This document shows positions 8,550-51,069 of a stretch of 64,000 nt of DNA, piece by piece; positions within the stretch are counted from its first letter, which is position 1; every line of letters starts with the position of its first letter. The notes beneath the pieces were generated by a model. That model was not told the origin of the DNA. It saw only the letters and a list, made by a program, of their open reading frames with translations, and searched no databases. Made by a program: the position numbers and the translations under genes. Origin of the DNA: Camelus dromedarius (lineage: Eukaryota); assembly GCF_036321535.1 (NCBI RefSeq), contig NC_087436.1, positions 33,172,001-33,236,000 on the forward strand, given 5' to 3'.

Positions 8550-9003
8550 GAGAAAGAGAAAGAAAAATAACATATGAGATCACTCATATGTGGAATCTTA
8601 AAAGACAAAAAAACAACAAACAAAGCATAAATACAAAACAGAAATAGACTCACAGACATAGAATACAAACTTGTGGTTGCCAAGGGGGCAGGGGGGTGGG
8701 AAGAGATAGACTGGGATTTCAAAATTGTAGAATAGATAAACAAGATTATACTGTATAGCACAGGGAAATATATACAAGATCTTATGGTAGCTCACAGAGA
8801 AGAAAATGTGACAATGAATATATATATGTTCATGTATAACTGAAAAACTGTGCTCTACACTGGAATTTGACACAACATTGTAAAATGATAATAAATCAAA
8901 AAAAAATGTGGAAAAAAAAGAAGTTGCAGTATATAATATATACAATGGAATACTACTCAGCCATAAAAACTATAAAATAATACCATTTGCAGCAAAAAAA
9001 AAA
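8550..9003 (+). mobile_element. 5'-truncated young L1 (ORF2 end + 3' UTR) with an appended ~75-nt segment and second poly(A)
   Basis: Homologous to the reverse complement of 32545-32905. 17-bp TSD aaaaactggcaaagatt at 8533-8549 and 9004-9020, preceded by TT. Confidence 0.95.
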
Positions 9004-19719: not shown

Positions 19720-20450
19720 AATTTCAGAAGAAGCAGGTGTATGGAGAAGAAAGATAGGTGTTTGAGTTCAGAGATTGTTAAATTTGATATGCCTATTATG
19801 TATCTAAGGAGATGCTAAGAAAGCAGTTGGATGTAAGGGTCTTATGTTTAATGGGAGGCTTATATTGGAGATCAGACTTTAGAAGTCATTAGCATTTAGA
19901 CAAGATTTAAATGTGAGCACCAAGGAAGTCCGGTGCTCTATTAATTCTATTAATTCCTCAAGGGATGAAGAAGAATCAGGTAAAGGCAGTATGATAGGAG
20001 AAAAATGGGGAAAAGAGAATGTTGTAGTGGCCATGTGAAGAAAATCTTGTTATTGGGGTGGGGTGATCAATCATAGAAAATGCTGATGGCAGATCCAGTA
20101 AAATGATAACAGGATAACAGCCATTGGGTTTTAGCACGATGAAAGTCTTTGATGATCTTGACAAGTGTAGTTTCTGTGGAATAGTGACTTTAAACCTGAC
20201 TGAAGTGACTTTCTAAGAAAACAAGAGGAAATGAATTGGAGAGGATTATTTAGAAAAGAGTAGAGACAATTTAACCATAATAACAAAGAAGAAAGCAGAG
20301 TATTTGGCCATTGTGCTTATAAATGAGCAGATACACTGATGAGAACTTGTTGAAGTTCCCTTCTATATGTTTCTGAGAAAAGTCAACAGCTGAGTCAGTT
20401 GTGGGATGTGTTGATAGTTTGAAAAGAGAGAAGTCATGAAATAGATTTTT
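19720..20450 (-). mobile_element. L2 LINE fragment
   Basis: gttaaatttgatatgcctatt...ggagatgc...gcagttggat and ccattgggttttagca...gatcttgacaag are reverse L2 motifs. Confidence 0.7.
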
Positions 20451-20579
20451 GGCAGATTGAAAAGACTAGGTGATATGCTAAGACTACAAGCCTATAATTA
20501 AGGGTTGATATGATGTTTGTAGTTGTGAATTTCATGTGAGACTAATCTTCATGTTTATATATAATATGCATGTAGAATT

Positions 20580-23500
20580 AGAAGAGAACACAGAAATGGG
20601 CATTGTTTGAATATGTTCATCTACACAAAAAACCCCAATAGATTTATTATAAAATTATTTTAACTAATAAAAGGCATCAACATTGTTTCAGGATATAAAT
20701 TTAATTTAGAAGCTATATATACATTTCACTATATTGTTCACAGTAAGAAACTAAAATATGAAATCTAAGGATTACTTATAAACATTACACAGGAATTTAG
20801 AAAAAATGTAAGTGTAAAAGAGCTATGAAAATAATAAAGAATCCATATTTCAAACATTATAATTGGAGAAAATGACATCTCAACCTTGTAATAAAACTGT
20901 TGAAATCAGGAGACAATACAATTTATAAAAGTTTAAAAGAGAGATTATTTTCAAAGGAGTTCATAAGACTGACAGAAATAACAGAAACCAGAAAAATCAC
21001 AGAATCGTATTTTTAAAGAAATGAAAGGAAGTATGTAACTGTCACCTTGGTCATTGAAAATAGCCTTCTAAAATGAACAAGAAATAAAGACATTTTTCTT
21101 TTACTTTCCCCCCAGAAATGAGTGTTTACTTGTGCAGTGGAAGTGACAGAGATTCCTGCTCCTTCCCAAGCAGTTTGGGACATTTGCTCCCTATAAGTAG
21201 TGAATTAAAGCAGGAGTTAGTGATACTTTGTGACTCACACAGCAGTGATCACGCCCCTCCTGCATGCTTCCACCATAAGTAAGGATTTCTCTAATCCCCT
21301 ACCTCCCTTCTTCATGTGCTTACCTGGTAGACATCCATGGTGTGACGTCACCTTGTGTTTGGGGTTCTGTACGCTGTCCTACACCTAGCCTCTAGAAGTA
21401 AATTAAGATTTCAGCTTAGGTTTCCTTACCCATTTCTATGGGTCACAGATGCAGGGAAGCCTGTCTGTGTTTTCTGTCTCTCCTCAAAGGGGTTTGCCCT
21501 CTGTGGAATTCGTACTTTCTGACTTCTCTGTCTCATTTCCTTTATGAGATCAAGGAAAATTATTATTTTATGGTTGATCTAGATGTTCAGAGTGGGACTG
21601 ATGCTCTTTCATCTTTCTCTAAAGGCATTTGAAAACAAACATGTGAGGATTCATCATTATTGTACCTGCAGTAAAGAAAAGAATAGAATGTGTTCCTTCA
21701 ATCAGAAGGCAAATAATCTTAGATGGAACCTCAGATATTAAGAAGAAATGATACACCACAATAAAGGCAAATATATGGATACGTTTAAATAAATTCTGAC
21801 TAAAATAAATAATGATTTGTGGGTTTAAAATATTTATACAATTAAAGTATATGACAACACTAGTATATAAGTCAGTATAAGAAGGACAGTAATAAAGAAA
21901 AGGCATTCTAAGATCCTTGCATTTTCCTTCAGGAAATAAGGTTCTGATTTTAGTGGTCATGGATATTTAACTATGAATGCAATGAATGCATGCATGGGTG
22001 CATATTGTAATTTCTAAAGTAACTATAAAAGAAATATGACATTAATAATAGAATAATTCAATCCAAAATGAACATTCAATCCAAAATAAACTATGGAAAG
22101 AGAGAAAAGTAAACACAGGACAAGAAGAACAAACAGAAAGCAAATGATAAGATGGTCGATCTAAGCTAAAAATGAGCAGGACAATGAATATTTCATAATG
22201 ATTAATGATTTTATGGTGATAAAAAGTCAGCTTACCAGGAAGATGTATAAATTCAAACTATATATACATATATATATATATGTATATATAGTAGCATATT
22301 TTCAATGTACAAAAGAGGTGGACTTGAAATGAAAAGACAATGCTACACATTTAGTGGGAAATTTTAATACACCTCTGAAAATTGACAGAAGAAGCAGAAC
22401 AATCATTAAGCACGTAAAAGATTGAGCAACCAGAGTATACAAATAGCAAAAGGCATTATCTTAAAGTATACATGGAACATTTATAAAAATTGACCTTAGG
22501 CTGGGGAGTAAAGTATGTATCAACAAATTTTTTTTTTAACAAATATCTAAAGAGTGAAATCATATAGAATGTGTTCTCTACCATGGTAGACTTACTCTAT
22601 AAAGAAGCAAACAAACAATTACTAAAACTTACCATATGTCTGATAATTAACTTCTAAGTGAAATACACTTCTAAATAATCATAATGTTAAAACTCAGGAG
22701 ACATCTCTGGGCAAGAGGAATGATACTTGATTCGGAAAGGTGCTAGTAAAATTGTATTTCATTATCAGTTTTACTCATTTATCTGTACTCTCATGTTTTT
22801 TGTACCTTTTGTATTATTTTTACTTTAATAAAAATTAAAATGTGGGTATAAAAATAGACAGATGTAAGTAGACTAAAGGAAAATATAACAGAGCTGACAT
22901 GCTGAGTCATATATATAGGAAAAATTGATCTCTGACAAAATAGCATCACAAATCAATGAGCAAAGATGAATTGTGTGTTAGTTTTGGGAAAAATAGCCTA
23001 ATAAATAAAAATAAGTAATAAAAATGTCAATTCTATACCTCAGAGCATATACAAAAGTGGAAACCAAGTGACTAAACTTCAAATTTGAAAAGTAATACAC
23101 ACACATACACAGACAGGAGAATGTGTGTGACTATGAAGTGGGGAAAGACTTCTGAAGACAAACTATTCTAGCCATAAATCAAAAGAAAACTGATAGATGT
23201 GCCCACATTAAATGTATGTTCAAGGACACAGATGATGGGTTTAGAGAATATTTCAAATGAGTATAGGTTAAATATCTAGAAAGCACAGAGAACTGCAAAT
23301 CAACAAAAAAGATAAGAGCCCCCTATGGAAAAAAATATACGAAGTGTAATGGACAATTCACAGAAGAGAATTTAGTGAGAAATCAATGATTATCAATCTC
23401 ACCAATAACCAGAGGAGGGGAAAAGAAGGTTTTTTTTGTTTTTGTCAGTTTAAATCCATCAGATTGACAGGTATGAACATGTCAGGTAGTTCCAAGTGAA

Positions 23501-23900
23501 TGTATAGAGGTGTGGAAATAAGAAGCCTCATGATTCGCTCATAGGAGACTAAAACAATCCAGTCATTATGGACAGCAGTTAAAAGAACTTAATGAAATTA
23601 TGCATTTATATGGAAACCCTAAGCATATATTCCAGAGAATTTCTTGCACAGGTCCATAGAGTCAAAAGCCTGAAGGATGTCAATGCAGCATTTTTGTGGT
23701 GGTTGAGGAGTTAGTGAAGACCCAGATTAAATACAGTGGACATATAAACAAAATGTTATCAGCCAATCAAATCAATTGGAGTATAAACATCTACAGAAAC
23801 TTGAGTTGATGTTCAAAATTGATTTTTAATAAAAATTTAAAAATCAGTATAATTATAGCAAAGTATCATCTGTATACATTAAAATACACACCACACACAC
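20580..23900 (+). mobile_element. Patchwork of ancient L1M/L1ME fragments
   Basis: A-rich, with degenerate ORF1/ORF2 motifs (cataagactgacag, acatggaacatttataaaaattgacc, ggacaattcacagaagag). Confidence 0.5.
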
Positions 23901-23961
23901 ACAGGAAATATGTTTTTGCCAGGGTACATGAATATGCAAGAAAACACATTTAAAGATATGG

Positions 23962-24021
23962 TATATATATGCGTGTGTGTGTGCGTATATATATATACGC
24001 ACACACACACGCATATATATA
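23962..24021. repeat. Perfect 60-bp palindrome of alternating purine-pyrimidine
   Basis: tatatatat gc gtgtgtgtgt gc g tatatatatata c gc acacacacac gc atatatata equals its own reverse complement. Confidence 0.95.
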
Positions 24022-26112
24022 TGTATACACACAGAAAATGAGGGGGTTGAACATTGTGATGAAAAATGAAGGAGAAAACATAAAAGAGAACAAAAGAGGG
24101 CTCTTACAAGAATGATCATTATACGTTCCTTGAACAGAGAAGTTATGATCAACTCACTAGGGTCAAAAAAAGTCATATATATGCAGAAGAAAAAATTGCA
24201 TTTAGATAAGTCATATGCCACCATTTTTATGTTGTGGGATGTCAGGCTTTTATTTTTGGATCGCTTGCCCTACTCCACTTTATTCTTTTTACATAGATGT
24301 AAAAGTGAAATTGAGCTGAGTGAAATAGTAGAAATCCTTGGTTGGAATTCCTTGCCAGAATGAATCATTAAAGTCATGTAAAAATCTGTTGAAAAATGAT
24401 CTTCAAAATGAGAAACATACTGACACTAAATATTAGTTTATTAGTAACTTATCATACATTTTGTTCCAATTGCAGAGTTCTTAGGACAGTTTCTTTTACA
24501 TGATAGGAGGTTTTTTCATGATAGGAGCTTAACAGGGTATATTAAAGAGGGACTGACTTCTCAAAATTTTATTTTGCAAATTGTTCATTGCTAACCACAC
24601 TTAATATGTAAGACTAATCATAGCATCCAACTTAATATTGAATTTTTCTTCAATAATATAAATTAAGAAAGTTATGAGAATGTTCTTCTAGAACATTTAG
24701 TTTTAGCATCAACATGATAAGGGCTCTTTGTGCCCGATTAAATTCTTATACACAGATTAATACTTTCACTCTGTCTTAGGATGCCAGCTCTGTGAGTGGA
24801 GGGTGCAGCATTGTGTAAGCAAAGGGAAAGGTAAAAATGCTCTCAGATACAAAGGCTGCACAAAAATAATTTCATAAGCACAATTACCATCTGTTTCTGG
24901 GTTCAGCTAATGAGAGAACTCGCTTAGTTGCACATCGGCTCAATCTGAAAATAATAAAACAATGATTTCTGTGAGTTTAAAAACATGCCCCTCTAACCTC
25001 CCCTTCTCAACCTCTAGTTTGACTTGTTGAAAAACAAGGAAAACAAATAGACATGTGGCCACCCACGTAGTTGTGTAAAGTGAAAAAAAAAAAGTGAAAA
25101 TAACGTGTGACAGAATGCCTGAAGGTTTCACTTAGTCCTTCACACATGGACTTAATCACTTTGGCAAATTCTCTCTCCCTCCCATATGAACTTTACAGAC
25201 CATTTTTCAAATTAAAAGTGCCCTCTCTTTCATGTTTTAAGAACTAGTGGCTCAGGGAAAAGCTGGGAAGTGATTTGGGAAACTGTGTCATCAACTAGGA
25301 ATTTTACTGCTTTTTAAAATTCCCTGGAAATGTGCCAATAATGTAGAATGTTAAAATTTCTGAGAGCTTCTTGTTATGTGTAATGGTACGTATGTATATG
25401 TGTGTGCACGTGAACACTCATTATCTAAGTCCTCTCTCAAACTGGAAATGGTTCAGTTCCATTGGAGACATACACTGTATTAAGGCAAATCAATGTTCCT
25501 TTGGGATTTCACTCTTAGAGTTACTTCTCAGGGCTAACTGCCATGCAGATCAGTGATTGGAGCTAATGAGCACAATCATATGACTGCATTAACAATGGAG
25601 AGTGACATAATTCTAAACCTACTGAACACTTTTTCAGACAAGACCACTTTATGGTCTTTACCAGTTCTTTAGAATTAGAAAACAACTAGCTCTCTAGTGG
25701 AATGGGAACCTTTCCTTTCCTGATACCCTCTACAGTTCAAGTTTACGTGGAAAGTATGAACAACTTTGCAGAGTAACAACTACTGTAAGGCCTCAGTCAC
25801 AGAAGGATTTCATAGATCTGTGTACACAGAGCTGTTCAGCAAAATCACATCACAGTCTCCATTTAATTCAGTAGTTTTAAGATCAACAGGCAACTTGGCC
25901 TGTTAAAGGTGCTCTTGCGAGTGCTCTGTGGATGCATTGTTTACCTTAGCCTTGCTATTCGTCCTTCTTAATTCCCTTGCTTCATATCTGTTCCGTAAGT
26001 TCCATTCTTCTTGACATGCTTCCTATGTAAAGTTGATATTTGGCAAAAGACCCTCCACCAATCAAAACTCTTTTACGTCATCACTTCCATATATTTGTCA
26101 GTCATGTAACTG

Positions 26113-26429: not shown

Positions 26430-26615
26430 GGCAGCATGGCCTAGTGGTAAAGAATGTAGGCTTGGTGACAGTCAAACTGCAGGCTCTGTGGTTTTCGAAA
26501 AGTGACAAACTTTCAGATCTTTATTTTTCTCATCTGTACAATGGGATGTAATAATACATATTCCAAAGATTTTGTTCTGAGATAAAATGAGAAAATTGTG
26601 TATTAAGGGGGCAGT
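26430..26615 (+). mobile_element. MIR SINE
   Basis: ggcagcatggcctagtggtaaaga head and the core tttctcatctgtacaatggga. Confidence 0.7.
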
Positions 26616-27420
26616 ATAGTTGTGTCATTTTCGAGGTTTTGTTTTCAGAAAGTGAGCTCTAGATATAGTAAATAAATTATATTGATACAGTTTCCTCTAT
26701 AAAATATTCCATAATCAATGATGTGTTGGGCGTTGTTATGACTAATAATGTTAGTTCAAGATTAAAATTGGAGCAGGGAAGCAAAATGGAAGCTGTAAGA
26801 AACAAAAGAGGATCCCTAAATTTCAAAGATTCCATGGACTTCATCTGTCCTATTTGTACAGTTTGTTACCTTATTACCTTGAAAATTGTTTTCAGTTCCT
26901 AATGAAAGCTGTGAACACTTTATAATGACTTTTCATACATAAACACTATGAACAAGAGATGAGAGGTCTATTAGGAAGAGGGAATTTGAAGTGGTTCTCA
27001 ACTGTCTAGAAGTGAGTCACTTAGCTCAGCAGTATTTACTTGAAGTCACAGTACTCTGAATCTGAGCTTCTGAGAAATTGCTCATGTTTCCTCTTCATTG
27101 CCTTTTCCCAGCAAAACTGGAGCACGGAAACTCTAGCCTCCATACTCAAAGCTAGTATTTTTACCTCATCAACTCTGAATTATTTTCATGATCCCTGACA
27201 GAAATATGTTAAGAACAAATATTGTTATTGTAGTATGAACCCAAATGGAAATGGTACAAAATATGAATCTATTTAATAAGTATTTATGTTCAAGGTTGGT
27301 TGACTTAGAGATATGCATCGAGTTAAAACTGTGTCTTTACTACTGCTTTAAGAAAAGTGTAATGTGTGAAATTCAGCATGTATTTTTAAAATTCTCTCCC
27401 TGTGATACAGTTGTTTCACT

Positions 27421-27842
27421 GATAAGCCTAGATGTAAAGATTTGACTGTTGCCAGACTGAATGCCTGCGATGATTCCACTGGATCATTAGACCATGGCTA
27501 GTGCCAGCAGATCCCACAGAAACTGAGGACCTGTACTCTCCTTTGTACTTATGGGAGTGAATCTTCATTAATATTTGTCAATTTGAATTTATTTCTAGAG
27601 TAGATTGGTTAGTGTGAATGCATGAATACTGTATTATTTTTAAAGTTAGAATTCCATGCTGTGTGTTTAGAGAGCTTCCAAATTTTTCAGAGCAAGGGAG
27701 TTTCTCCTCCATATGTACAAAGGGGAGTACAGGTCCTCAATTTCTGTGGGACCTGCTGGCACTAGCCATGGTCTAATCGTCCAGTGGAATCATCCCAGGC
27801 ATTCAGTCTGGCAATAGTCAAATCTTTATATCAAGGCTTATC
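27421..27842. repeat. Long inverted repeat: 134-bp arms (27421-27554, 27709-27842), 154-bp spacer
   Basis: Manual ungapped alignment of the left arm against the reverse complement of the right arm gives 124/134 identical. Confidence 0.97.
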
Positions 27843-30339
27843 TTTTGATGAGATTTACAGTGACGTGCAAAGAAGAGTTTGGTGGTGATGCTGTCTAAGA
27901 ACACTGGTTGCGTGTACAGCAAATGACCAAGTAATCAAGCTCTTATCTGTATCTTCTTGAGGTTTTCAAGAATGTCCTGCTTTCCTTTGCAGTATAATTT
28001 CTTGACTAGTGAGTTTCCATATTTGTCTTTTAATGTAGTTCAAATACCCTACTTATGTAAGTTCCTGTGTTTTATTATAAATGTGTTTTTAAAACATTTT
28101 TTCTTTCTGAGTTTACTGTAGTATGCTAGGCCCCGTGAATAAAATCATCCAGTTTCTCTTCAAGAATATTGTAGCATAGGCCAAACTTTTAAAAAGTTTT
28201 ATTTAAAATAAAGATTGCAACATAGAAAAGATGTGTTGTTAGTTCATGAATAGCGTGTGATGTACAGCTTGAAGGAATGTCAGTATTCTTTATATTAGCA
28301 TTCAGAGTTTATTGCCAGTTTAAAACAATTTGTGATGGCTAATGTGTACATAAGTGACATATACTCTGGTACAGTGTAGACAGTGAAGGTAGTTTTTCAG
28401 CTGCTAAGTTAATTTTTTTAAAAAAAGATTCAAGTGGGATTTACATTCTGTAATAGTTTTGTTATTCAGGAGTGGAGGAAGATAAAGCTGAAAAGGCAAT
28501 AGGACTCTTAGATAATTTTCTCCTAGACCCACAGTCTGTATTTTAAACTATATTTAGCTTTCAAATTTCTTTCAGTGCAGTTAAACACCACCAAAAGTTT
28601 TAATAATAAATGGCAGATTTTTTTTCTTTCTAATCTGGGGAAAACAACATAATTGCTCTTTCTTTCTTTGCTGCTCACACTAATGGTATTTTTTTTCTGT
28701 CATATTTTTATTATCCTTCAAGCCTTTCTGTTACTGAGCACTAAAACTGCCATCATTGGCTGTTGGTGGAAGTCCTGTAACTTTCCCTGTGTGTACAGGC
28801 CCCATGAGGACAATGTTTGCCTTATTCCTCATCAGTGTCAGTTTTTACCAAACTCTCAGTTGAGGGGGAAAAGGAAAGTGTTGAAAAGTATGTACCCTCC
28901 CCAGCCTTTTAGGGAGGGAGATGTGGGGCTGGGATTTTCTCCACGCAGATTTCATCACGTGCATTATTCTCCCTGAGCACTGATTGGCTGGCAAGATGTG
29001 GAGAACTCCAGATTACTGAACTCCTACTGGGGTACCAGAAATAAATAAATATGACCAAGGATTTCCAAATCTGCAGCCAGCCAACCAGAGTATGAGACCA
29101 CAACACAATGGCTACAGTGTGTCTTGCACGATTTTAAAACCCTAGACAACTGGACTTGAATTCTTGATAGGCAGTGATTTTACATTGAAAAGATCAGATG
29201 AGTTTTGGCTGGCTTGTGCCTCTGAATGCTGGGATCAATTATTATTTGGGAATCAGCTGTTTCTTTTTTTCTGATAGGAAACATTGTGATGGAAGGAATT
29301 ATTACATTGTCACATTGTTTTAAAAGCTGAGCTCCAGGCAGCCTTTGCTCATCCCTGGCTGGTTCAGCTTGATCGGGACTGATGGGAGATCAACTTCTGG
29401 TTCTTGCCATAAACCTGCTTTATCATCTGGGAAGGTGCAACTGCAAACCACTATTTCGTATTTTCAGGAGTTTATGATAAATTTTCCTGGCACACTGAAT
29501 TTAACAATAAATTAAAGGCTTTCATATTTTATTATTTTACAAGGAAGAGCTCTCAGCACCGCCACACACTTAGTATTCCAAAGGAAAGGTTTGGCACAAG
29601 AATAGTAAAGTTTCAGTACTAGATATTCAAGCATGAACTCCACAAGCAAAGGTCTTTAGTTTTTTAAATTTGCTTTACTAGCCAACGTGATGGGCTCAAT
29701 ATTAAAGTGCTTGTTTCTTCATTGAATCCTTCATAAGCAAAATGAAGTTTCAAGGTGTGTCAGTTTTCTGATAATTCAAAGAAAAACATGTTTACATTAA
29801 TTTCCTGTGCTTTTATTTTATATAGTGGCTAAATGTTCTCAGCTATTCGCTCACTCTAGGAAATCTCTATGATCATCAGGTGAGGAATTTTTAAATTTAC
29901 TTTAGTATCTTCACCTCAGTGAATGTAAATCTCATGTATTCAGCGGGAGAACTTGGAAGACAAAGAATGCCTTTTCCCAGTTCTCCCTGTCAAAACACAG
30001 GCCCCCAATTTGAACACATCCCACAAAATATTTACTCATAATATAGAGTACTTGTTTATAATATTTTGTAAGACTGTATAGTTTATATATGTTGTTCTAA
30101 ATTACTATATCGGTATAACCACTAAGAGATACGTACCTGTACAGATTTTACAATTGCATGGAGTTAGGTTTCTGAACTCATCTCAGACAGGAATTGGGTC
30201 TTTTAATTTTTTCCCAGTTGAATTTAATTCTCTGCCTTCAATGGTAAGATGATAAATATGGTCTTACTAACTGTATACCAAATATGATAAGTTTAATTAA
30301 AATTAATTATAAGAACTAAGTGAAAGTTAGTGAAGCTCT

Positions 30340-32522: not shown

Positions 32523-32538
32523 CAAAATGATCCTTTTT
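32523..32538. repeat. Target-site duplication of the full-length L1 (left copy, 16 bp)
   Basis: caaaatgatccttttt, identical to 39647-39662. The boundary with the poly(A) tail is ambiguous by a few T. Confidence 0.93.
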
Positions 32539-32740
32539 TTTTTTAACATTTTTTATTGATTTATAATCATTTTACAATGTTGTGTCAAATTCCAGTGTTC
32601 AGCACAGTTTTTCAGTTATTCATGGACATATACACACTCATTGTCACATTTTTTTCTCTGTGAGTTATCATAACATTTTGTGTATATTTCCCTGTGCTAT
32701 ACAGTGTAGTCTATTCTACAATTTTGAAATCCCAGTCTAT

Positions 32741-32762
32741 CCCTTCCCACCCTCCACCCCCC
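32741..32762 (-). other. G-rich tract of the L1 3' UTR (G-quadruplex-capable)
   Basis: Minus strand GGGGGGTGGAGGGTGGGAAGGG has four runs of 3 or more G. Confidence 0.7.
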
Positions 32763-32854
32763 TGGTAACCACAAGTCTGTATTCTCTGTCTGTGAGTCTA
32801 TTTCTGTCCTTTATTTACGCTTTGTTTTTGTTTGTTTGTTTTTGTTTTTGTTTT

Positions 32855-35800
32855 TTAGATTCCACATATGAGCGATCTCATATGGTATTTTTCTTTCTCT
32901 TTCTGGCTTACTTCACTTAGAATGACATTCTCCAGGAGCATCCATGTTGCTGCAAATGGCATTATGTTGTCGGTTTTTATGGCTGAGTAGTATTCCATTG
33001 TATAAATATACCACCTCTTCTTTATCCAGTCACCTGTTGATGGACATTTAGGCTGTTACCATGTTTTGGCTATTGTAAACAGTGCTGCTATGAACATTGG
33101 GGTGCAGGTGTCATCCTGAAGTAGGGTTCCTTCTGGATACAAGCCCAGGAGTGGGATTCCTGGGTCATATAGTAAGTCTATTCCTAGTCTTTTGAGGAAT
33201 CTCCACACTGTTTTCCATAGTGGCTGCATCAAACTGCATTCCCACCAGCAGTGTAGGAGGGTTCCCCTTTCTCCACAGCCTCTCCAGCATTTGTCATTTG
33301 TGGATTTTTGAATGACGGCCATTCTGACTGGTGTGAGGTGATACCTCATTGTAGTTTTGATTTGCATTTCTCTGATAATTACTGATACTGAGCATTTTTT
33401 CATGTGCTTTTTGATCATTTGTATGTCTTCCTTGGAGAATTGCTTGTTTAGGTCTTCTGCCCATTTTTGGATTGGGTTGTTTATTTTTTTCTTATTGAGT
33501 TGTATGAGCTGCTGATATATTCTGGAGATCAAGCCTTTGTCGGTTTCACTTGCAAAAATTTTCTCCCATTCCGTAGGTTTTCTTCTTGTTTTACTTCTGG
33601 TTTCCTTTGCTGTGCAGAAGCTTGTAAGTTTCATTAGGTCCCATTTGTTTATTCTTGCTTTTATTTCTTCTAGGATAAAGTGTTTGAGATGTATGTCAGA
33701 TAATGTTTTGCCTATGTTTTCCTCTAGGAGGTTTATTGTATCTTGTCTTATGTTTAAGTCTTTAATCCATTTTTTGAGTTGATTTTTGTATATGGTGTAA
33801 GGGAGTGTTCTAGCTTCATTGTTTTACATGCTGCTGTCCAGTTTTCCCAACACCATTTGCTGAAGAGACTGTCTTTATTCCAATGTATATTCTTGCCTCC
33901 TTTGTCAAAGATGAGTTGACCAAAAGTTTGTGGGTTCATTTCTGGGCTCTCTATTCTGTTCCATTGGTCTATATGTCTGTTTTGGTACCAGTACCATGCT
34001 GTCTTGATGACTGTAGCTCTATAGTATTGTCTGAAGTCTGGGAGAGTTATTCCTCCAGCCTCTTTCTTTCTCTTCAGTAATGCTTTGGCAATTCTACGTC
34101 TTTGATGGTTCCATATGAATTTTATTATGATTTGTTCTAGTTCTGTGAAATATGTCCTGGATAATTGGATAGATATTGCATTAAATCTATAGATTGCCTT
34201 GGGCAGTGTGACCATTTTAACAATATTGATTCTTCCAATCCAAGAGCATGGAATATCTTTCCATTTTTTAAAGTCTTCTTTAATTTCCTTCATCAATGGT
34301 TTATAGTTTTCTGTGTATAATTCTTTCACCTCCTTGGTTAGATTTATTCCCAGATATTTTATTACTTTGGGTGCTATTTTAAAGGGGATTGTTTCTTTAC
34401 TTTCTTCTTCTGTTGATTTATCGTTAGTGTAAGGAAATGCAACTGATTTTTGAACGTTAATCTTGCAACCTGCTACCTTGCTGAATTCTTCAATCAGCTC
34501 TAGTAGCTTTTGTGTGGACCTTTTAGGGTTTTCTATATATAGTAACATGTCATCAGCATATAAGACACTTTTACCTCTTCTTTTCCAATTTGGATCCCTT
34601 TTATTTCTTTCTCTTGCCTGACTGCTGTGGCTAGGACTTCCTAGGACTTCCAGGACTATGTTGAATAGGAGTGGTGATAGTGGGCATCCTTGTCTTGTCC
34701 CAGATTTTAGTGGGAAGCTTTTGAGTTTTTCACCGTTGAGTACTATGCTGGCTGTAGGTTTGTCATATATAGCTTTTATTATGTTGAGATATGTTCCCTC
34801 TATACCCACTTTGGCGAGAGTTTTTATCATAAATGGGTGTTGAATTTTATCAAATGCTGTTTCTGCATTGATTGAGATGATCATGTGGTTTTTGTCCTGT
34901 CTCTTGTTGATGTGATGTATTACACTGATTGATTTGCGTATGTTGAACCAGCCTTGTGTCCCTGGGATGAACCCCACTTGGTCATGATGTATAATCTTTT
35001 TTATGTGTTGGATTCTATTTGCTAAAATTTTGGTGAGGATTTTGGCGTCTATGTTCATCAGTGATATTGGCCTATAATTCTCTTTTTTTGTAGTGTCTTT
35101 GCCTGGTTTTGGTATCAGGGTGATGGTGACTTCATAGAATGAGTTTGGGAGTATTCCCTCCTTTTCGATCGTCTGGAAGAGTTTGAGAAGGACTGGTATG
35201 AGTTCTTCTTTGTATGTTTGGTAGAATTCCCTGGTGAAGCCGTCCGGTCCTGGACTTTTATTTGTAGGGAGGTTTTTAATTGCTATTTCTATTTCCTTTC
35301 TAGTGATTGGATTGTTCAAGTGTTCAGATTCTTCTTGATTCAGTTTTAGTGGACAGTATGTTTCCAGAAACTTGTCCATCTCCTCTAGGTTATCCAGTTT
35401 GGTTCCATACAGTTTTTCATAATATTCTCGTAAGATATTCTGTATTTCTATTTTGTTTGTTGTAATTTCTCCATTTTCCTTTCTTATTTTGCTAATTTGT
35501 GCTCTCTCTTTTTTCTTCTTTGTGAGTTTGGCCAGAGGTTTGTCGATTTTATTTACTTTTTCAAAAAAAACAGCTTTTGGTTTGGTTGATTTTTTCTATG
35601 GTCTTGTTAATCTCTATTGTATTTAATTCCTCTCTGATCTTTATTATTTCCTTCCTTCTGCTGCTTTTTGGGGCTTTTTGTTCTTCTTTTTCTAATTCAT
35701 TCAGGTGGTGGGTTAAATTGTTTATTTGAGATTGTTCTTCTTTTTTGAGGAAGGCCTGTATCGCTATAAACTTCCCTCTTAGCACTGCCTTTGCTGTGTC

Positions 35801-36661
35801 CCATAGGTTTTGAGTGGTTGTGCTTTCATTATCATTTGTCTCAAGGTATTTTTTAATTTCAGCTTTGATTTCCTCATTGATCCATTGTTTTTTCAATAAC
35901 ATATTGTTTAATCTCCATGCTTTCCTTTTTTTCTCCTTTGTTTCTCTGTTGTTGATTTCCAGTTTCATGGCATTGTGGTCAGTAAAGATGCTTGAGATAA
36001 TTTCTATCTTCTTAAAATTGTTGAGGTTTCTTTTGTGCCCAAATGCATGATCGATCCTGGAAAATGTTCCATGTGTACTTGAAAAGAATGTATATCCTAT
36101 TTTTTTGGGGTGTAATGCTCTGAAAATACCCACCAAATCTAGTTTTTCTATTGTAGTATTTAATTTCTCTGTTGCCTTGTTTATTTTCTGTCTGGAAGAT
36201 CTGTCTAGTGATGTTAATGCAGTGTTAAAATCTCCAACTATGATTGTATTCCCATCAATATCCCCCTTTATCTCTGTTAGTAATTCTTGTATGTACTTAG
36301 GTGCTCCTATATTGGGTGCATATATATTAACGAGTGTAATATCCTCATCTTGTATCACTCCTTTAATCATTATAAAATGTCCTTCTTTATCTTTCTTTAT
36401 GGCCTTTGTTTTAAAGTCTATTTTGTCTGAAATCAGTACTGCAACACCTGCTTTTTTGGCTTTTCCATTTGCATGGAATATCCTTTTCCATCCTTTCACT
36501 CTCAATCTATATGTGTCCTTCTCCCTAAAGTGGGTGTCTTGTATGCAGCATATTGAAGGTTCTTGCTTTATTATCCAGTCTGCCACTCTGTGTCTTTTGA
36601 CTGGAGCATTTAGTCCATTAACATTTACAGTAATTAATGATGGATGTGTGTTTATTGCCAT
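32855..36661 (-). pseudogene. ORF2: L1 ORF2p (endonuclease / reverse transcriptase), disrupted
   Basis: EN motifs NVNGLN, VGDFN, SRIDH, TDH; RT motifs [26 protein letters not shown]-terminal CWRGCGE..HCWWEC. Lesions: frameshifts at ~35563-35570 and ~33770-33775, a 10-bp duplication at 34631-34650 plus a 1-bp deletion near 34563, and a TAA at 33056-33058. Residual frame ends ..SLICGI* at 32855. Confidence 0.97.
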
Positions 36662-37067
36662 TTTGAACTTATCTTTGCAGTTGAATTGGTATATCCTCTT
36701 TGTTCCTTTCTTCTTCCTTTTGTGGTTTGGTAATTTTCCTTTGTATTATCATGGATTTTATTTAATTTTTGTGACTCCTTTGTAAATTTTTGGCTTGTGG
36801 TTACCCTTTTTTGTAAATCTGTCAACCCATTACTATAACTGTTACTATTAAAGTGATAGTAACATGATCTCAAACCCATCCTACTGTTAAAAAAATTTAA
36901 AAAAGAAAGAAAAAAATATATTCTATATTTCCCTGCCTACCTCTCCCACTCTCAGTGATTTGTATGTCTTCTTTTATAATTTCATGTTTACTTTATTTGT
37001 AGTTCATGAGTTATCACCTTTCCAGTTGTATGTTTCTCATTTCTGTAGCATCCTGCTGCTTTTCTAT

Positions 37068-37971
37068 TTAGAATATCCCTTTCAATATTTCTTTTAGCAT
37101 GGGTTTAGTGTTGCTAAACTCCTGCAGCCTTTTTTTTTGTCTGTGAAACTCTTTATTTCTCCTTCTATCCTCAAGGATAACCTTGCTGGATAAAGGATCC
37201 TAGGCTGCATCTTTTTTTTATTCAGGGCTTTGAATATATCTTGCCACTCCCTTCTGGCCTGTAGTGTTTGTGTAGAGAAATCAGCTGAGAGCCTTATGGG
37301 GGTTCCCTTGTAACTTACTCTTTGCTTTTCTCTTGCTGCCTTTAGAATCATTTCTTTATCCTTGACTCTGGCCATCTTGATTATTATATGTCTTGGTGTG
37401 GGTCTATTTGGGTTCTTCCTGTTTGGGACCCTCTGAGCTTCCTGTACTTGGATATCTGATTCCTCTTTAAGTTTGGGAAGTTTTCAGTCATGATTTCTTC
37501 AAAAACCTTTTCGATCCCCTTTGATCTTTCTTCTCCTTCTGGGACCCCTATGATGCGAAGATTGGGACGCTTTATATTATCCCATAGGTCCCTTATGCTA
37601 TTTTCATTATTTTTTATTTGCTTCTCTTGTAGTTCTTCTGAATGGGTGCTTTCTATTGCCCTGTCTTCTAGATCACTAATTCGTTCCTCTGCATTATCTA
37701 GTCAGCTTTGCACAGCTATTAGATCATTCCTCATCTCTGTCAATGAGTTTACCCATTCTACTTGGCTCTTCTTTATAGCTTCAATTTCATTTTTGACATA
37801 TTTTATATCTCTAAACACTATCTCTTTTAATTCCTTCAGCAATTCGATCACTCCTTTTTTGAAATCTTGATCTAGTAGGCTATCGATGTCCATTTCGTTG
37901 ATCTTTCTTTCAGGGGATTTCTCTTGTTCTTTTAATTGGGAAAGGTTTTTCTGCTTCTTCATCTTGCTCAT
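37068..37971 (-). pseudogene. ORF1: L1 ORF1p (RNA-binding chaperone), disrupted
   Basis: MSKMKKQKN...; coiled coil, then DLWDNIKRPNLRIIGVPEGEE, RPTPRHIIIKM, GTPIRLSADFS and ILYPARLS. Premature TGA at 37702-37704 (likely CGA>TGA). Frameshift in the T9 run at 37130-37138. Natural stop at 37068-37070. Confidence 0.95.
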
Positions 37972-39646
37972 ACCTCTTTGGCACTGTGGTGTATGGAGTA
38001 TCAGTTGTTTATTTTGGTCCTTAAGGATTTTATGTATCTGATGCCTATTTAGGAATAGAACTTAGGAAAAAAGAAAAAAAAATAAGAGAGAGAGAGAAAG
38101 AATTTTAAAAGAAGGGAGAAAGAGGGTTTGAAAACAGTATATAATAAATAATAGAAGAGTGAGTTGAAGCAGAGTATTAATCGGGTTGAGACATCCTTTT
38201 AAAACCTTTACAAAAAAAGGGGGGGGGGGAGATGAATAGATGTATTTGAAACCTGTGTCTAATCAATAGCAGGACATCAAAACCCAAGAGAAATAGAAAT
38301 GAATTAAGAAGTAAAGATTAAGAGAGTAATAGAAAATAGAACAGGTAAAAACAGATTAAAAAAAAAAAGGGGGGGGGGGGTTGTCGGTGTTCTCCTGGAG
38401 TCTGTGTGCTTTTAATGTGAAGTCTTTCTGTCTTCGTCCTGTTTTGGAAGCTCAGCTTGCTGTTTTCAGAGGCCCTCCGTTGGTGCCCTCTTCTGTGCTG
38501 CTCCCAGCACCTGTAGGCAAGCAGATCGCGCCTCCTCCTAACACTGGGTCAGGTGCAGCTCTCTGCTGTGGGTGGGCGGGTCGCTGCCCCTCCCGATGCC
38601 GCAGTCAGATGTTGCAGACTGGCCAGGTAGGAGGGCGGGTCGTGCCCCCTCCCAGCACCTCGGTCAGGGGCTGTGTTCCTGCCCAAAAGGCGGGGGGCCG
38701 CTCTCCCTCTACCTGCACCGCCGGTAGTACCACTCTCTATGCGGCTGCGCGCTCCGCCCTGGTCGGCGCTCCGCGGTGGGCTCGGGGAAGACGGAGGGAC
38801 AGCCCTGTCCCTGCTCTGAACCAAAACCCAGCTCCTTGTTTGTCTTTGTGGAGCAAGTTCTCTGAGGGACCAGGATGGAAGGATCCTATCTGCCCCGGGC
38901 TGCAGGCCAGTCTCAGTCTGGCCTTTGCGGCTGCTAAGCCCTTCGGTGCGGATGCAGGTTTCGCCCCTGCCCCCGCCTGAGTGCTAATCGCGGAGGATAT
39001 GGCGGCTGTGCCTGAGCCCCGCCTCTCTTCCCCGGAAAACTTTCTGTGGGTTTTCAGCGATGGGGGTGTGCACCCTTCCCCCCAGAGCACCTCAACCTTG
39101 CTGTTTTATGGAGGGCCCAGGTTGTTCTGCCGTGTGCACCCACAGCCACGGCGCGCAGCCCCTTGCGTTCCCCCGGGGCTGCCTCCGTGCAGCCGCCCCC
39201 GTCCTCCGGCAGGCTTGGGCAGTCTGGCCCTGCCCGCGGCTGCCGGCCCACGTCTCAGGCTGGGTGTCGGGGGGACGCTCTGTGCCCGTTTAACTTAGTT
39301 CTGTTAGTCAAGGGCTGCTCTGTACAGATCTGAGCCTCGGAGGCTCCCCCTCCGTCCCGCTGGCCTCTCAGTTGGAGAGGGGAGACCCAGCGAGCGAGCG
39401 CCGGTCCTCCTTTGCCGCTCCCTCCCCGCGGGACCCGTCCTGTGCTGCTTTGCCTTTTGCTCTTTCTTTTTTCCTTTTCTCCTACCAGATTTTTGGCGTC
39501 TTTATCTTTTGAAGAGGGCGATGTTCTGTCGGAGTTCCACAGGTGCTCTGGTTGGCTGAGTGGGTCTGTAGATGTGGGTCTTGGTGTATTTGTGGGAGAG
39601 GGTGACCTGCGAGCGTCCTTCTACTCTGCCATCTTCTCCGTCTCTC
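37972..39646 (-). promoter_or_regulatory. L1 5' UTR / internal Pol II promoter; CpG-island-like from ~38500 to 39450
   Basis: The only extended GC- and CpG-rich segment in the window. Lies between the element 5' end and the ORF1 ATG and contains several GGGCGG boxes. Confidence 0.85.
39628..39635 (-). promoter_or_regulatory. YY1 motif at the L1 5' end
   Basis: Minus strand begins (g)gagagacggagAAGATGGCag. AAGATGGC about 12 nt from the 5' end is the conserved YY1 position in mammalian L1s. Confidence 0.75.
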
Positions 39647-39662
39647 CAAAATGATCCTTTTT
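39647..39662. repeat. Target-site duplication of the full-length L1 (right copy, 16 bp)
   Basis: caaaatgatccttttt followed by aac. On the minus strand this reads gtt/aaaaagg, the L1 endonuclease consensus TT/AAAA. Confidence 0.93.
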
Positions 39663-49384: not shown

Positions 49385-49862
49385 AAAAGTATTGAAATAT
49401 ATTTGATATAAAATACTTCATAAATTTAAGGCATACAACAGGTTGATTTGACATATTTATATATTGCAGTATGATTGCCTTGTAGTGATAATTAGCACTT
49501 CTATCACACCACATAATTAACATTTCTTTTTAGTAGTTGTTTTAATTAAGAAATTGACACAACATTGTAAACTGACTTTACTTCAATTAAAAAAAAATAA
49601 AAAAACTAGTCTCTTAGCAAGTTCGATGTTTATAACATGATACTGTTTTCTGTATTTACTGTACCGTGCACTACAACTCTAGGACTTACTATTCCTTGCA
49701 AGTCTGTGCCCTTAAACAACATCTGACCTATCCGCTCTCCTCCCAGCCCCTGCTCACCACCACTTAATCTGTTTTTACAGGTTGGGTTTTTAAAGATTCT
49801 GCTTATAAGTGATACTATACTGTACTTGTCTTGATCTGACTTATCTCACTTAGCATAAGGCA
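49385..49862 (-). mobile_element. L1MA-like 3' end, interrupted by the 49550 insertion
   Basis: attgaaatatatttgatata...taaatttaaggcatacaaca...ctcttagcaa...tctgacttatctcacttagcataa is a typical reverse L1MA 3' UTR. Confidence 0.75.
49550..49606 (+). mobile_element. Very short L1 3' terminus inserted in an older L1
   Basis: gaaattgacacaacattgtaaactgactttacttcaatt plus A-tail matches the last ~45 nt of the other L1 3' UTR copies. Confidence 0.75.
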
Positions 49863-50719: not shown

Positions 50720-50925
50720 AGAATAGATAAACAAGGTTGTACTGTGTGGCACAGGGAAATATATACAGGATCTTGTGGTGGCTCACAGTGAAAGAGAGTG
50801 TGACAAGGAATGTCTATATGTTCCTGTATAACTGAAAAATTGTGCTCTACACTGGAATTTGACACAACATTGTAAAATGACTATAACTCAATAAAAAGAA
50901 TGTTTAAAAAAAAGGGAAAAAAAAA
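50720..50925 (+). mobile_element. 5'-truncated young L1 3' UTR copy with A-tail
   Basis: Aligns to 8729-8910 (e.g. tgtgctctacactggaatttgacacaacattgtaaaatga identical). Has AATAAA and an A-rich tail. Confidence 0.92.
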
Positions 50926-50949
50926 GAAATGATCAGATTGCTCTGACCT

Positions 50950-51030
50950 ATTTTTTTTAATTTATTTTTTACTGAAGTATAATTGATTTACAATGTTAGT
51001 TTCAGGTGTACAGCAGAATGATTCAGTTAT

Positions 51031-51069
<39 letters not shown>

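Follow-up and report, generated by a model that had tools for sequence, protein, structure and literature searches.

A 134-nt-armed hairpin in a dromedary gene desert is best read as a neutral template-switch inverted duplication

Long inverted repeats can originate in a single mutational step. Under the four-point model for template switches one event yields an inverted repeat, and the apparent structures that result may be kept without selection (PMC5453318, PMC10710096, in the available text of both). Such events have also founded miRNA stems (PMC10710096; 10.1101/2021.04.15.439925), and the examples in these sources reach lengths of 83 nt and 59 bp, respectively. Non-repetitive inverted duplicates have been catalogued in human and other vertebrates, with camelids outside the catalogues (PMC5398296, PMC5414712, as far as the available text goes). 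According to the former, intergenic inverted duplicates in human are expressed barely above mirror controls (7.8% versus 7.4%), and some are argued to be functional, as are some in Drosophila (PMC3176832, in part). A different class with inverted ends is formed by the MITEs, derivatives of hAT, Tc1/mariner, PIF and piggyBac transposons, families of which are reported from camelid genomes in the available part of PMC8605555. Finally, the hairpin and pseudogene loci of mouse oocytes give rise to endo-siRNAs through a pathway that relies on a rodent Dicer isoform. In the accessible text of a 2026 review endo-siRNAs are minimal in non-rodent oocytes, and another lineage is not ruled out (PMC13399003).

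The window analysed here is a stretch of 64,000 nt (C1:33,172,001-33,236,000), and the hairpin lies within it at C1:33.20 Mb. Its parts are:

27421..27554, no strand: left arm, 134 nt, 46% GC, single-copy except for the right arm
27555..27708, no strand: spacer (loop), 154 nt, 31% GC
27555..27569, no strand: inner 15-nt imperfect extension, complementary to 27694-27708 at 9/15
27694..27708, no strand: partner of the inner 15-nt extension, from the repeat finder and alignment
27709..27842, no strand: right arm, the left arm's reverse complement at 124 of its 134 nt

A sequence-only reading of this DNA had described arms of 134 nt with 10 substitutions, no gaps and a 154-nt loop, and realignment confirmed all of this, the arms being identical as reverse complements at 124 of 134 positions (92.5%). 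On the plus strand four of the differences form G-U pairs (27434, 27448, 27484, 27539) and two are A-C mismatches (27511, 27523); the other four are same-base mismatches (27430, 27468, 27485, 27549). The stem contains 124 Watson-Crick pairs out of 134, or 128 with wobbles counted, and the uninterrupted helices of 37 bp and 25 bp were recovered as described. Depending on the strand it comprises 126-128 bp, and it is very stable on both. The arms are indeed GC-richer (46.3%) than the 500-nt flanks (34.4% and 32.8%), and the loop has 31.2% GC. Folding of 27400-27860 as RNA gave -271.2 kcal/mol on the plus strand (z -24.85) and -255.7 kcal/mol on the minus strand (z -23.68), values that none of 100 shuffles reached in either case; the fold is thus far beyond chance, and the strands are about equal. 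According to the repeat finder the arms continue inward, to a length of 149 nt with 89% identity, although the 15 added positions match at only 9. The outer edge of the arms is abrupt, with an in-register match of 23/75 beyond it.

With 134-nt arms, 92.5% identity, 46% GC and a 154-nt spacer, the hairpin falls under the Lirex definition of a long inverted repeat (arms over 30 bp, over 85% identity and over 20% GC; PMC5414712, in the accessible text). It likewise belongs to the LL class of PMC5398296, which in the text available has an arm of at least 36 nt, a spacer of at most 1 kb and a stable fold. For unique DNA it lies at the long, high-identity end. Literature searches returned no paper describing the element, so that it appears undescribed, while its kind, the non-repetitive long inverted duplicate, is already known.

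Fold-back chimeras are a familiar library artefact, and this counts for the idea that the hairpin was created during assembly. However, the arms differ at 10 sites, and 15 of the 24 public sequencing runs listed contain all 72 words sampled from 27250-28000. When the five rows from three studies that were marked as a possible source (P1, P3, P4) are left out, 10 rows from four studies, every one of them of organism A, still hold all 72 words. The hairpin is therefore real DNA, and the independent runs effectively refute an artefact, the probability of which we consider negligible.

The arm and a 661-nt stretch around it, searched as DNA against the 2.3-Gb genome (2.31 Gb), found only themselves. 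A 24-mer pattern allowing up to three mismatches gave four matches, two of them self; the other two (on contigs C7 and C2) were rejected as a parent or target locus, as they did not extend and were identical at only 49/134 and 47/134 positions, seed included. A second pattern, a 27-mer, gave two matches, both self. The absence of a match does not by itself prove rarity; the identical genome search with a nearby old repeat, run as a sensitivity control, returned 52 non-self matches at 66-84% identity, and searches able to find such copies revealed no multicopy family for the arms. The description of the arms as apparently unique DNA is thereby upheld. The parent or trans target that had been proposed as a thing to look for in the same genome was not found, nor was any near-perfect complementary target elsewhere, in a search that a match split across exons could escape.

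The same searches bear on the idea that the hairpin is the remnant of a rare non-autonomous DNA transposon, a MITE, with the 134-bp arms as terminal inverted repeats. Both the 422-nt size and the layout with inverted ends fit such an element, and families of this kind are on record for camelid genomes (PMC8605555, in part). Nevertheless, MITEs are multicopy families, and the hairpin is single copy in searches that detect 66-84% copies of another repeat. Moreover, a target-site duplication is absent: among 121 boundary pairs (4-12 nt, boundaries shifted by up to 5) a lone 4-mer came up, and its shift would trim the arm itself. Inspection of the flanks by eye showed neither TA nor TTAA. We therefore regard a transposon origin as very improbable; the palindromic MITE that the sequence-only reading held against its own proposal is represented here by neither a genomic family nor a target-site duplication.

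Further origins were rejected on the basis of family databases. Rfam gave 0 matches at the gathering score in the 64-kb window and 0 at E up to 1 in 26500-29800, which speaks against a known RNA family or a canonical pri-miRNA. Neither of the open frames that cross the arms (49 and 48 aa, two among seven proteins tested) had a Pfam match, and a coding or pseudogene origin was rejected. Scans for orthologues, all of very low power, gave 0 matches in a first metagenome set, 0 in a viral set, and in a second metagenome set one match (47/134, on a contig with 58% GC) that was judged to be chance.

Taken together, we assign a probability of roughly 0.7 to the reading in which the hairpin is a selectively neutral, lineage-specific inverted duplication, made by template switching about 8-26 Myr ago. 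It shares with the described template-switch mutations (types 1-4-3-2 / 3-2-1-4 and 1-3-4-2 / 3-1-2-4) a local, single-copy inverted repeat that could arise in one step, a spacer, a sharp outer edge, a possible short imperfect priming match and the lack of a target-site duplication, whereas its arm of 134 nt compares with 28-83 nt in the examples (PMC5453318, PMC10710096, in the available text). This length, which exceeds the published examples cited above, counts against our reading. As for the mechanism, we infer that during replication or repair the nascent strand turned back on itself or switched to the opposite one, probably primed by the short imperfect inverted match between 27555-27569 and 27694-27708, a presumed pre-existing quasi-palindrome. 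A stretch of 134 nt would then have been copied backwards before the strand returned to its template, leaving arm, 154-nt spacer and inverted arm, after which each arm would have gathered point mutations independently. Both the abrupt outer edge (23/75) and the 9/15 inner extension agree with copying that started from an imperfect inverted match. The product may fold as single-stranded DNA, or as RNA under passing transcription, and would have no selected job. Based on this one genome we predict both that the duplication is lineage-specific and that it lacks compensatory changes. If it is neutral indeed, it provides a clear mammalian case of a long (134-nt) duplication of template-switch type whose age can be estimated, and it exceeds in length the published examples that we found.

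A self-comparison of 264 kb (the window with 100 kb on each side) provided a local yardstick. It contained 82 inverted matches, 10 of them with a spacer of up to 3 kb, and among these 10 the hairpin has the highest score. Since no inverted repeat in the 264 kb whose spacer is under 3 kb surpasses it, it is uncommon at such a scale, which also counts against our reading. The one ranked second lies 128 kb from the hairpin:

L022:1311-1441 / 2668-2798 (C1:33,327,311-33,328,798): second inverted duplicate, 131 nt, 117/131 identical (89%), 1.2-kb spacer

Its differences comprise 8 transitions and 6 transversions, with 4 G-U and 4 A-C pairs. This duplicate sits inside an old multicopy repeat, which we take to be ERV-L-like. 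Other genomic copies of that repeat match its right arm together with the flanks; at the left arm they match only an arm-sized piece, on the opposite strand. The left arm is thus a later inverted copy in dead sequence, and the region evidently gains inverted copies like these, in size and in age, through neutral processes. If the hairpin is neutral, the two cases together suggest that events of this type steadily supply raw material for dsRNA substrates. The spacer of the 131-nt duplicate also holds a 57-nt imperfect palindrome at 1819-1875.

The loop of the hairpin is less easily explained by one event. Its halves, taken in the register of the arms, are complementary at 33 of 75 positions, where 27% is expected, and of 31 registers compared this one ranks first (P 0.0014 by binomial; 0.16% of 1917 windows of real DNA; dinucleotide-shuffle P 0.0002). 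With the first 15 nt removed, 24/60 positions still pair in register (P 0.02). That the peak falls exactly at the register of the arms is the main support for another history, in which an older palindrome reached deeper into the loop and its outer 134 bp were made alike again from time to time, through conversion between the arms or template switching, or else were retained as an element at the DNA level in the INTU-FAT4 desert (see below); the 8% divergence would then date the last conversion and not the birth. Template switching does make the arms of inverted repeats alike (PMC8604942, in the text available). In addition, the inner 15 nt have 9 matches, above chance (P 0.007), and yet 6 mismatches, too many for the rate of the arms (P 0.0005). 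On the other hand, the differences in the loop include 31% transitions, equal to random, and a gapped alignment of its halves is no better than shuffles (P 0.90; with LASTZ-like gaps P 0.19 and 0.92). Neither result supports a full-length palindrome that is old and has decayed; it is moreover unlikely that pairing would have fallen to 44% with no indel at all, and the outer edge is abrupt. A similarity between the outer flanks (score 44 versus a shuffle mean of 31; P 0.027, 300 shuffles) was rejected since the alignment is gappy and AT-rich. An older palindrome therefore seems to us quite improbable, and we read the excess as the priming quasi-palindrome plus chance, or as small later switches, which leaves it partly unexplained and counts against a single template switch. 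The 131-nt duplicate shows no such excess (13/75 in register).

The differences between the arms look neutral, as the template-switch reading would have it, though they are only 10 in number, give low power and come from one genome. Transitions make up 6 of the 10, against 42/70 pooled over three local repeat yardsticks, namely two L1-end pairs with one copy in common (21/35 and 13/21) and the 131-nt duplicate (8/14). The chance that at least four of six transitions yield wobbles is 0.34 on the named strand and 0.69 on either strand, in keeping with the sequence-only view that a 4 versus 2 wobble split is weak evidence. The argument built on A-C mismatches as sites favoured by ADAR fared less well, for it is strand-symmetric: the minus strand has four of them and the plus strand two. 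When the same differences are placed at random, the longest perfect run averages 35 (25 observed, P 0.90) and the longest paired run 46 (37 observed, P 0.73). Both observed runs are below the random average; thus no miRNA-sized core has been protected, and with 10 differences and correspondingly low power no excess of pair-keeping over pair-breaking changes was seen. This small number counts against our reading as well, because in a single genome compensatory changes, and hence a stem maintained by compensatory pairs, are invisible.

For the age of the duplication we used the K2P distance between the arms, 0.079, and a mutation rate of 2.5e-8 per 5-year generation, i.e. 5e-9 per site per year (PMC8605555, in the available text). 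The arms would at this rate be about 8 Myr old (3.6-15), and at slower rates 18-26 Myr (8-50). Camelids split from the other artiodactyls about 60 Myr ago. The duplication is accordingly estimated to be younger than that split, unless conversion reset the clock.

The hairpin is intergenic. Family searches placed Plk4_PB1 at 32.42 Mb and Intu_longin_1 at 32.56 Mb of C1 on one side, and on the other giant cadherin exons (1544 and 1774 codons) at 34.27-34.39 Mb and Sprouty at 35.78 Mb. Elsewhere on C1 the searches placed Lig_chan genes at 5.68 and 57.6 Mb, TIR genes at 13.58 Mb (one) and 95.2 Mb (three) and an Eph receptor at 66.97 Mb. We take the longin and cadherin exons to be those of INTU and FAT4, and the gene order of C1 to be that of human chromosome 4 reversed, which would place the corresponding human site at 4q28, between INTU and FAT4. 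Within the INTU-FAT4 gene desert, the hairpin is separated by 0.64 Mb from the INTU-type exon and by 1.07 Mb from the closest of the FAT4-type cadherin exons found. A crude exon finder, which would miss non-coding or weak exons, showed nothing convincing in the 264 kb. Being far from any gene found, and with halves that have drifted like unselected DNA, the hairpin is most likely an old copying scar.

The neighbourhood does contain one large mobile element:

32523..39662, minus strand: full-length L1 of about 7.1 kb with its target-site duplication, both ends approximate

It has RVT, endonuclease and ORF1 domains, with ORF1 and ORF2 broken into several long frames, and a matching target-site duplication of about 16 nt at both ends, read by eye. 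Its 5' end, at about 38300-39650, is CpG-rich (72 CpG, observed/expected 0.59) and is, judged by composition, the only promoter-like element near the hairpin; a sigma-70 promoter scan is not meaningful for a mammal. The L1, whose sense strand is the minus strand, points toward the hairpin; 4.7 kb separate its 3' end from the right arm, and within this interval the minus strand has 7 AATAAA hexamers. Short 3' ends of the same L1 family occur at 8551-8970, 49550-49605 and 50720-50997 of the window and are 89-90% identical to one another where measured; around 50811-51047 two such ends are arranged tail to tail, which gives a weak inverted repeat. A long A-rich stretch at 20000-24400 resembles by eye what we take to be an old plus-strand L1 fragment. 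The perfect 35-nt inverted match at 23961-24021 is made of TA and CA/TG microsatellites and has a simple-repeat origin.

The L1 gives some substance to the other reading of the hairpin, in which it is a transcribed dsRNA with a selected role, either as an ADAR substrate or as a Dicer or Drosha substrate that yields small RNAs. If the stem is transcribed, the visible route would be minus-strand read-through from the L1, opposite to the strand favoured in the sequence-only reading; such read-through by a full-length L1 could occur in the germ line or early embryo, and an unannotated lncRNA would be the other likely route. A stem of 126-128 bp that is very stable on either strand and a CpG-rich L1 5' end pointing at it would suit this reading, as would the expression of some intergenic inverted duplicates (PMC5398296, in part) and, taken at face value, the share of sampled words in the RNA run X16 (see below). 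But the crude finder revealed no host exon in the 264 kb, and the genome searches no further locus that might be targeted; the mismatches have a neutral spectrum and leave no core protected, and a read-through transcript would have to pass the 7 AATAAA hexamers between L1 and arm.

Comparison with the known RNA systems does not favour a selected role either. The mouse-oocyte loci resemble the hairpin in that both would give a long near-perfect duplex if transcribed; for the camel hairpin, in contrast, no parent mRNA or trans target was found, and it thus fails the target test for a gene-regulating endo-siRNA. Furthermore, the minimal endo-siRNA of non-rodent oocytes goes together with the lack of the truncated Dicer (PMC13399003, in the accessible text). 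A 134-bp stem with a 154-nt loop is also unlike the 35-bp stem of a pri-miRNA (PMC10710096, in part), and in the available text of PMC12553114 vertebrates are without long miRNA hairpins. The length of the stem and its mismatch types would suit ADAR on either strand. Known long dsRNA substrates of ADAR include inverted SINE pairs and intronic editing-complementary stems; unlike these, the hairpin is not a SINE pair and is not in any gene found.

Public RNA runs were also considered. Among the 24 rows three are recorded as RNA, and of these X16, labelled reproductive system, contains 0.31 of the 72 words, in contigs only, while X19 (0.11) and X20 (0.04) hold small shares that are no evidence. 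In X16 the contigs add up to 847 million letters, or about 0.42 of the amount in the runs that hold all words (1878-2298 million); with contigs equal to about 0.42 of a genome, a share of 0.31 would be explained by genomic carry-over. Two further rows are guessed to be RNA (X17 with 0.26, X18 with 0.25), and each of the five holds a smaller share than its contig letters divided by 2000 million (ratios 0.26-0.73), as genomic carry-over would give. The run index consists of 31-letter words, which heavily edited or small RNAs would escape.

We therefore consider the selected-RNA reading disfavoured and, on the sequence evidence, unlikely. The sequence-only reading had kept two explanations side by side. 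The neutral fold-back duplication has held up, with a single-copy arm, an intergenic position, a neutral substitution spectrum and, not far away, an inverted copy of similar size within a dead repeat. The selected RNA structure gained no support, as neither a host gene nor a trans target was found, pair-breaking changes are not depleted, no core is seen and the strands fold about equally. A bolder variant would have the stem of about 130 bp, born by template switch within camelids, driven in minus-strand read-through by the young L1 4.7 kb away in germ line or early embryo, and edited or diced, so that two independent mutations would have produced a non-rodent hairpin endo-siRNA or a de novo small-RNA locus. 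We hold this to be a long shot. Transcription together with dicing or editing would nevertheless show a new hairpin RNA gene arising outside rodents.

Some minor features of the surroundings are worth recording. A CpG- and GC-rich patch at L022:5950-7200 (C1 about 33.332-33.333 Mb) lies in the gene desert at about 132 kb from the hairpin; it contains a TGACGT motif that is presumably CRE-like, and could represent the promoter of an unannotated transcript. The open frames at L003:5044-6067 resemble what we take to be retroviral pol fragments. Lastly, four Sprouty-like fragments with the same score and one TGA each were found on four contigs (C35, C67, C117 and C15), and these probably constitute a duplicated pseudogene block.
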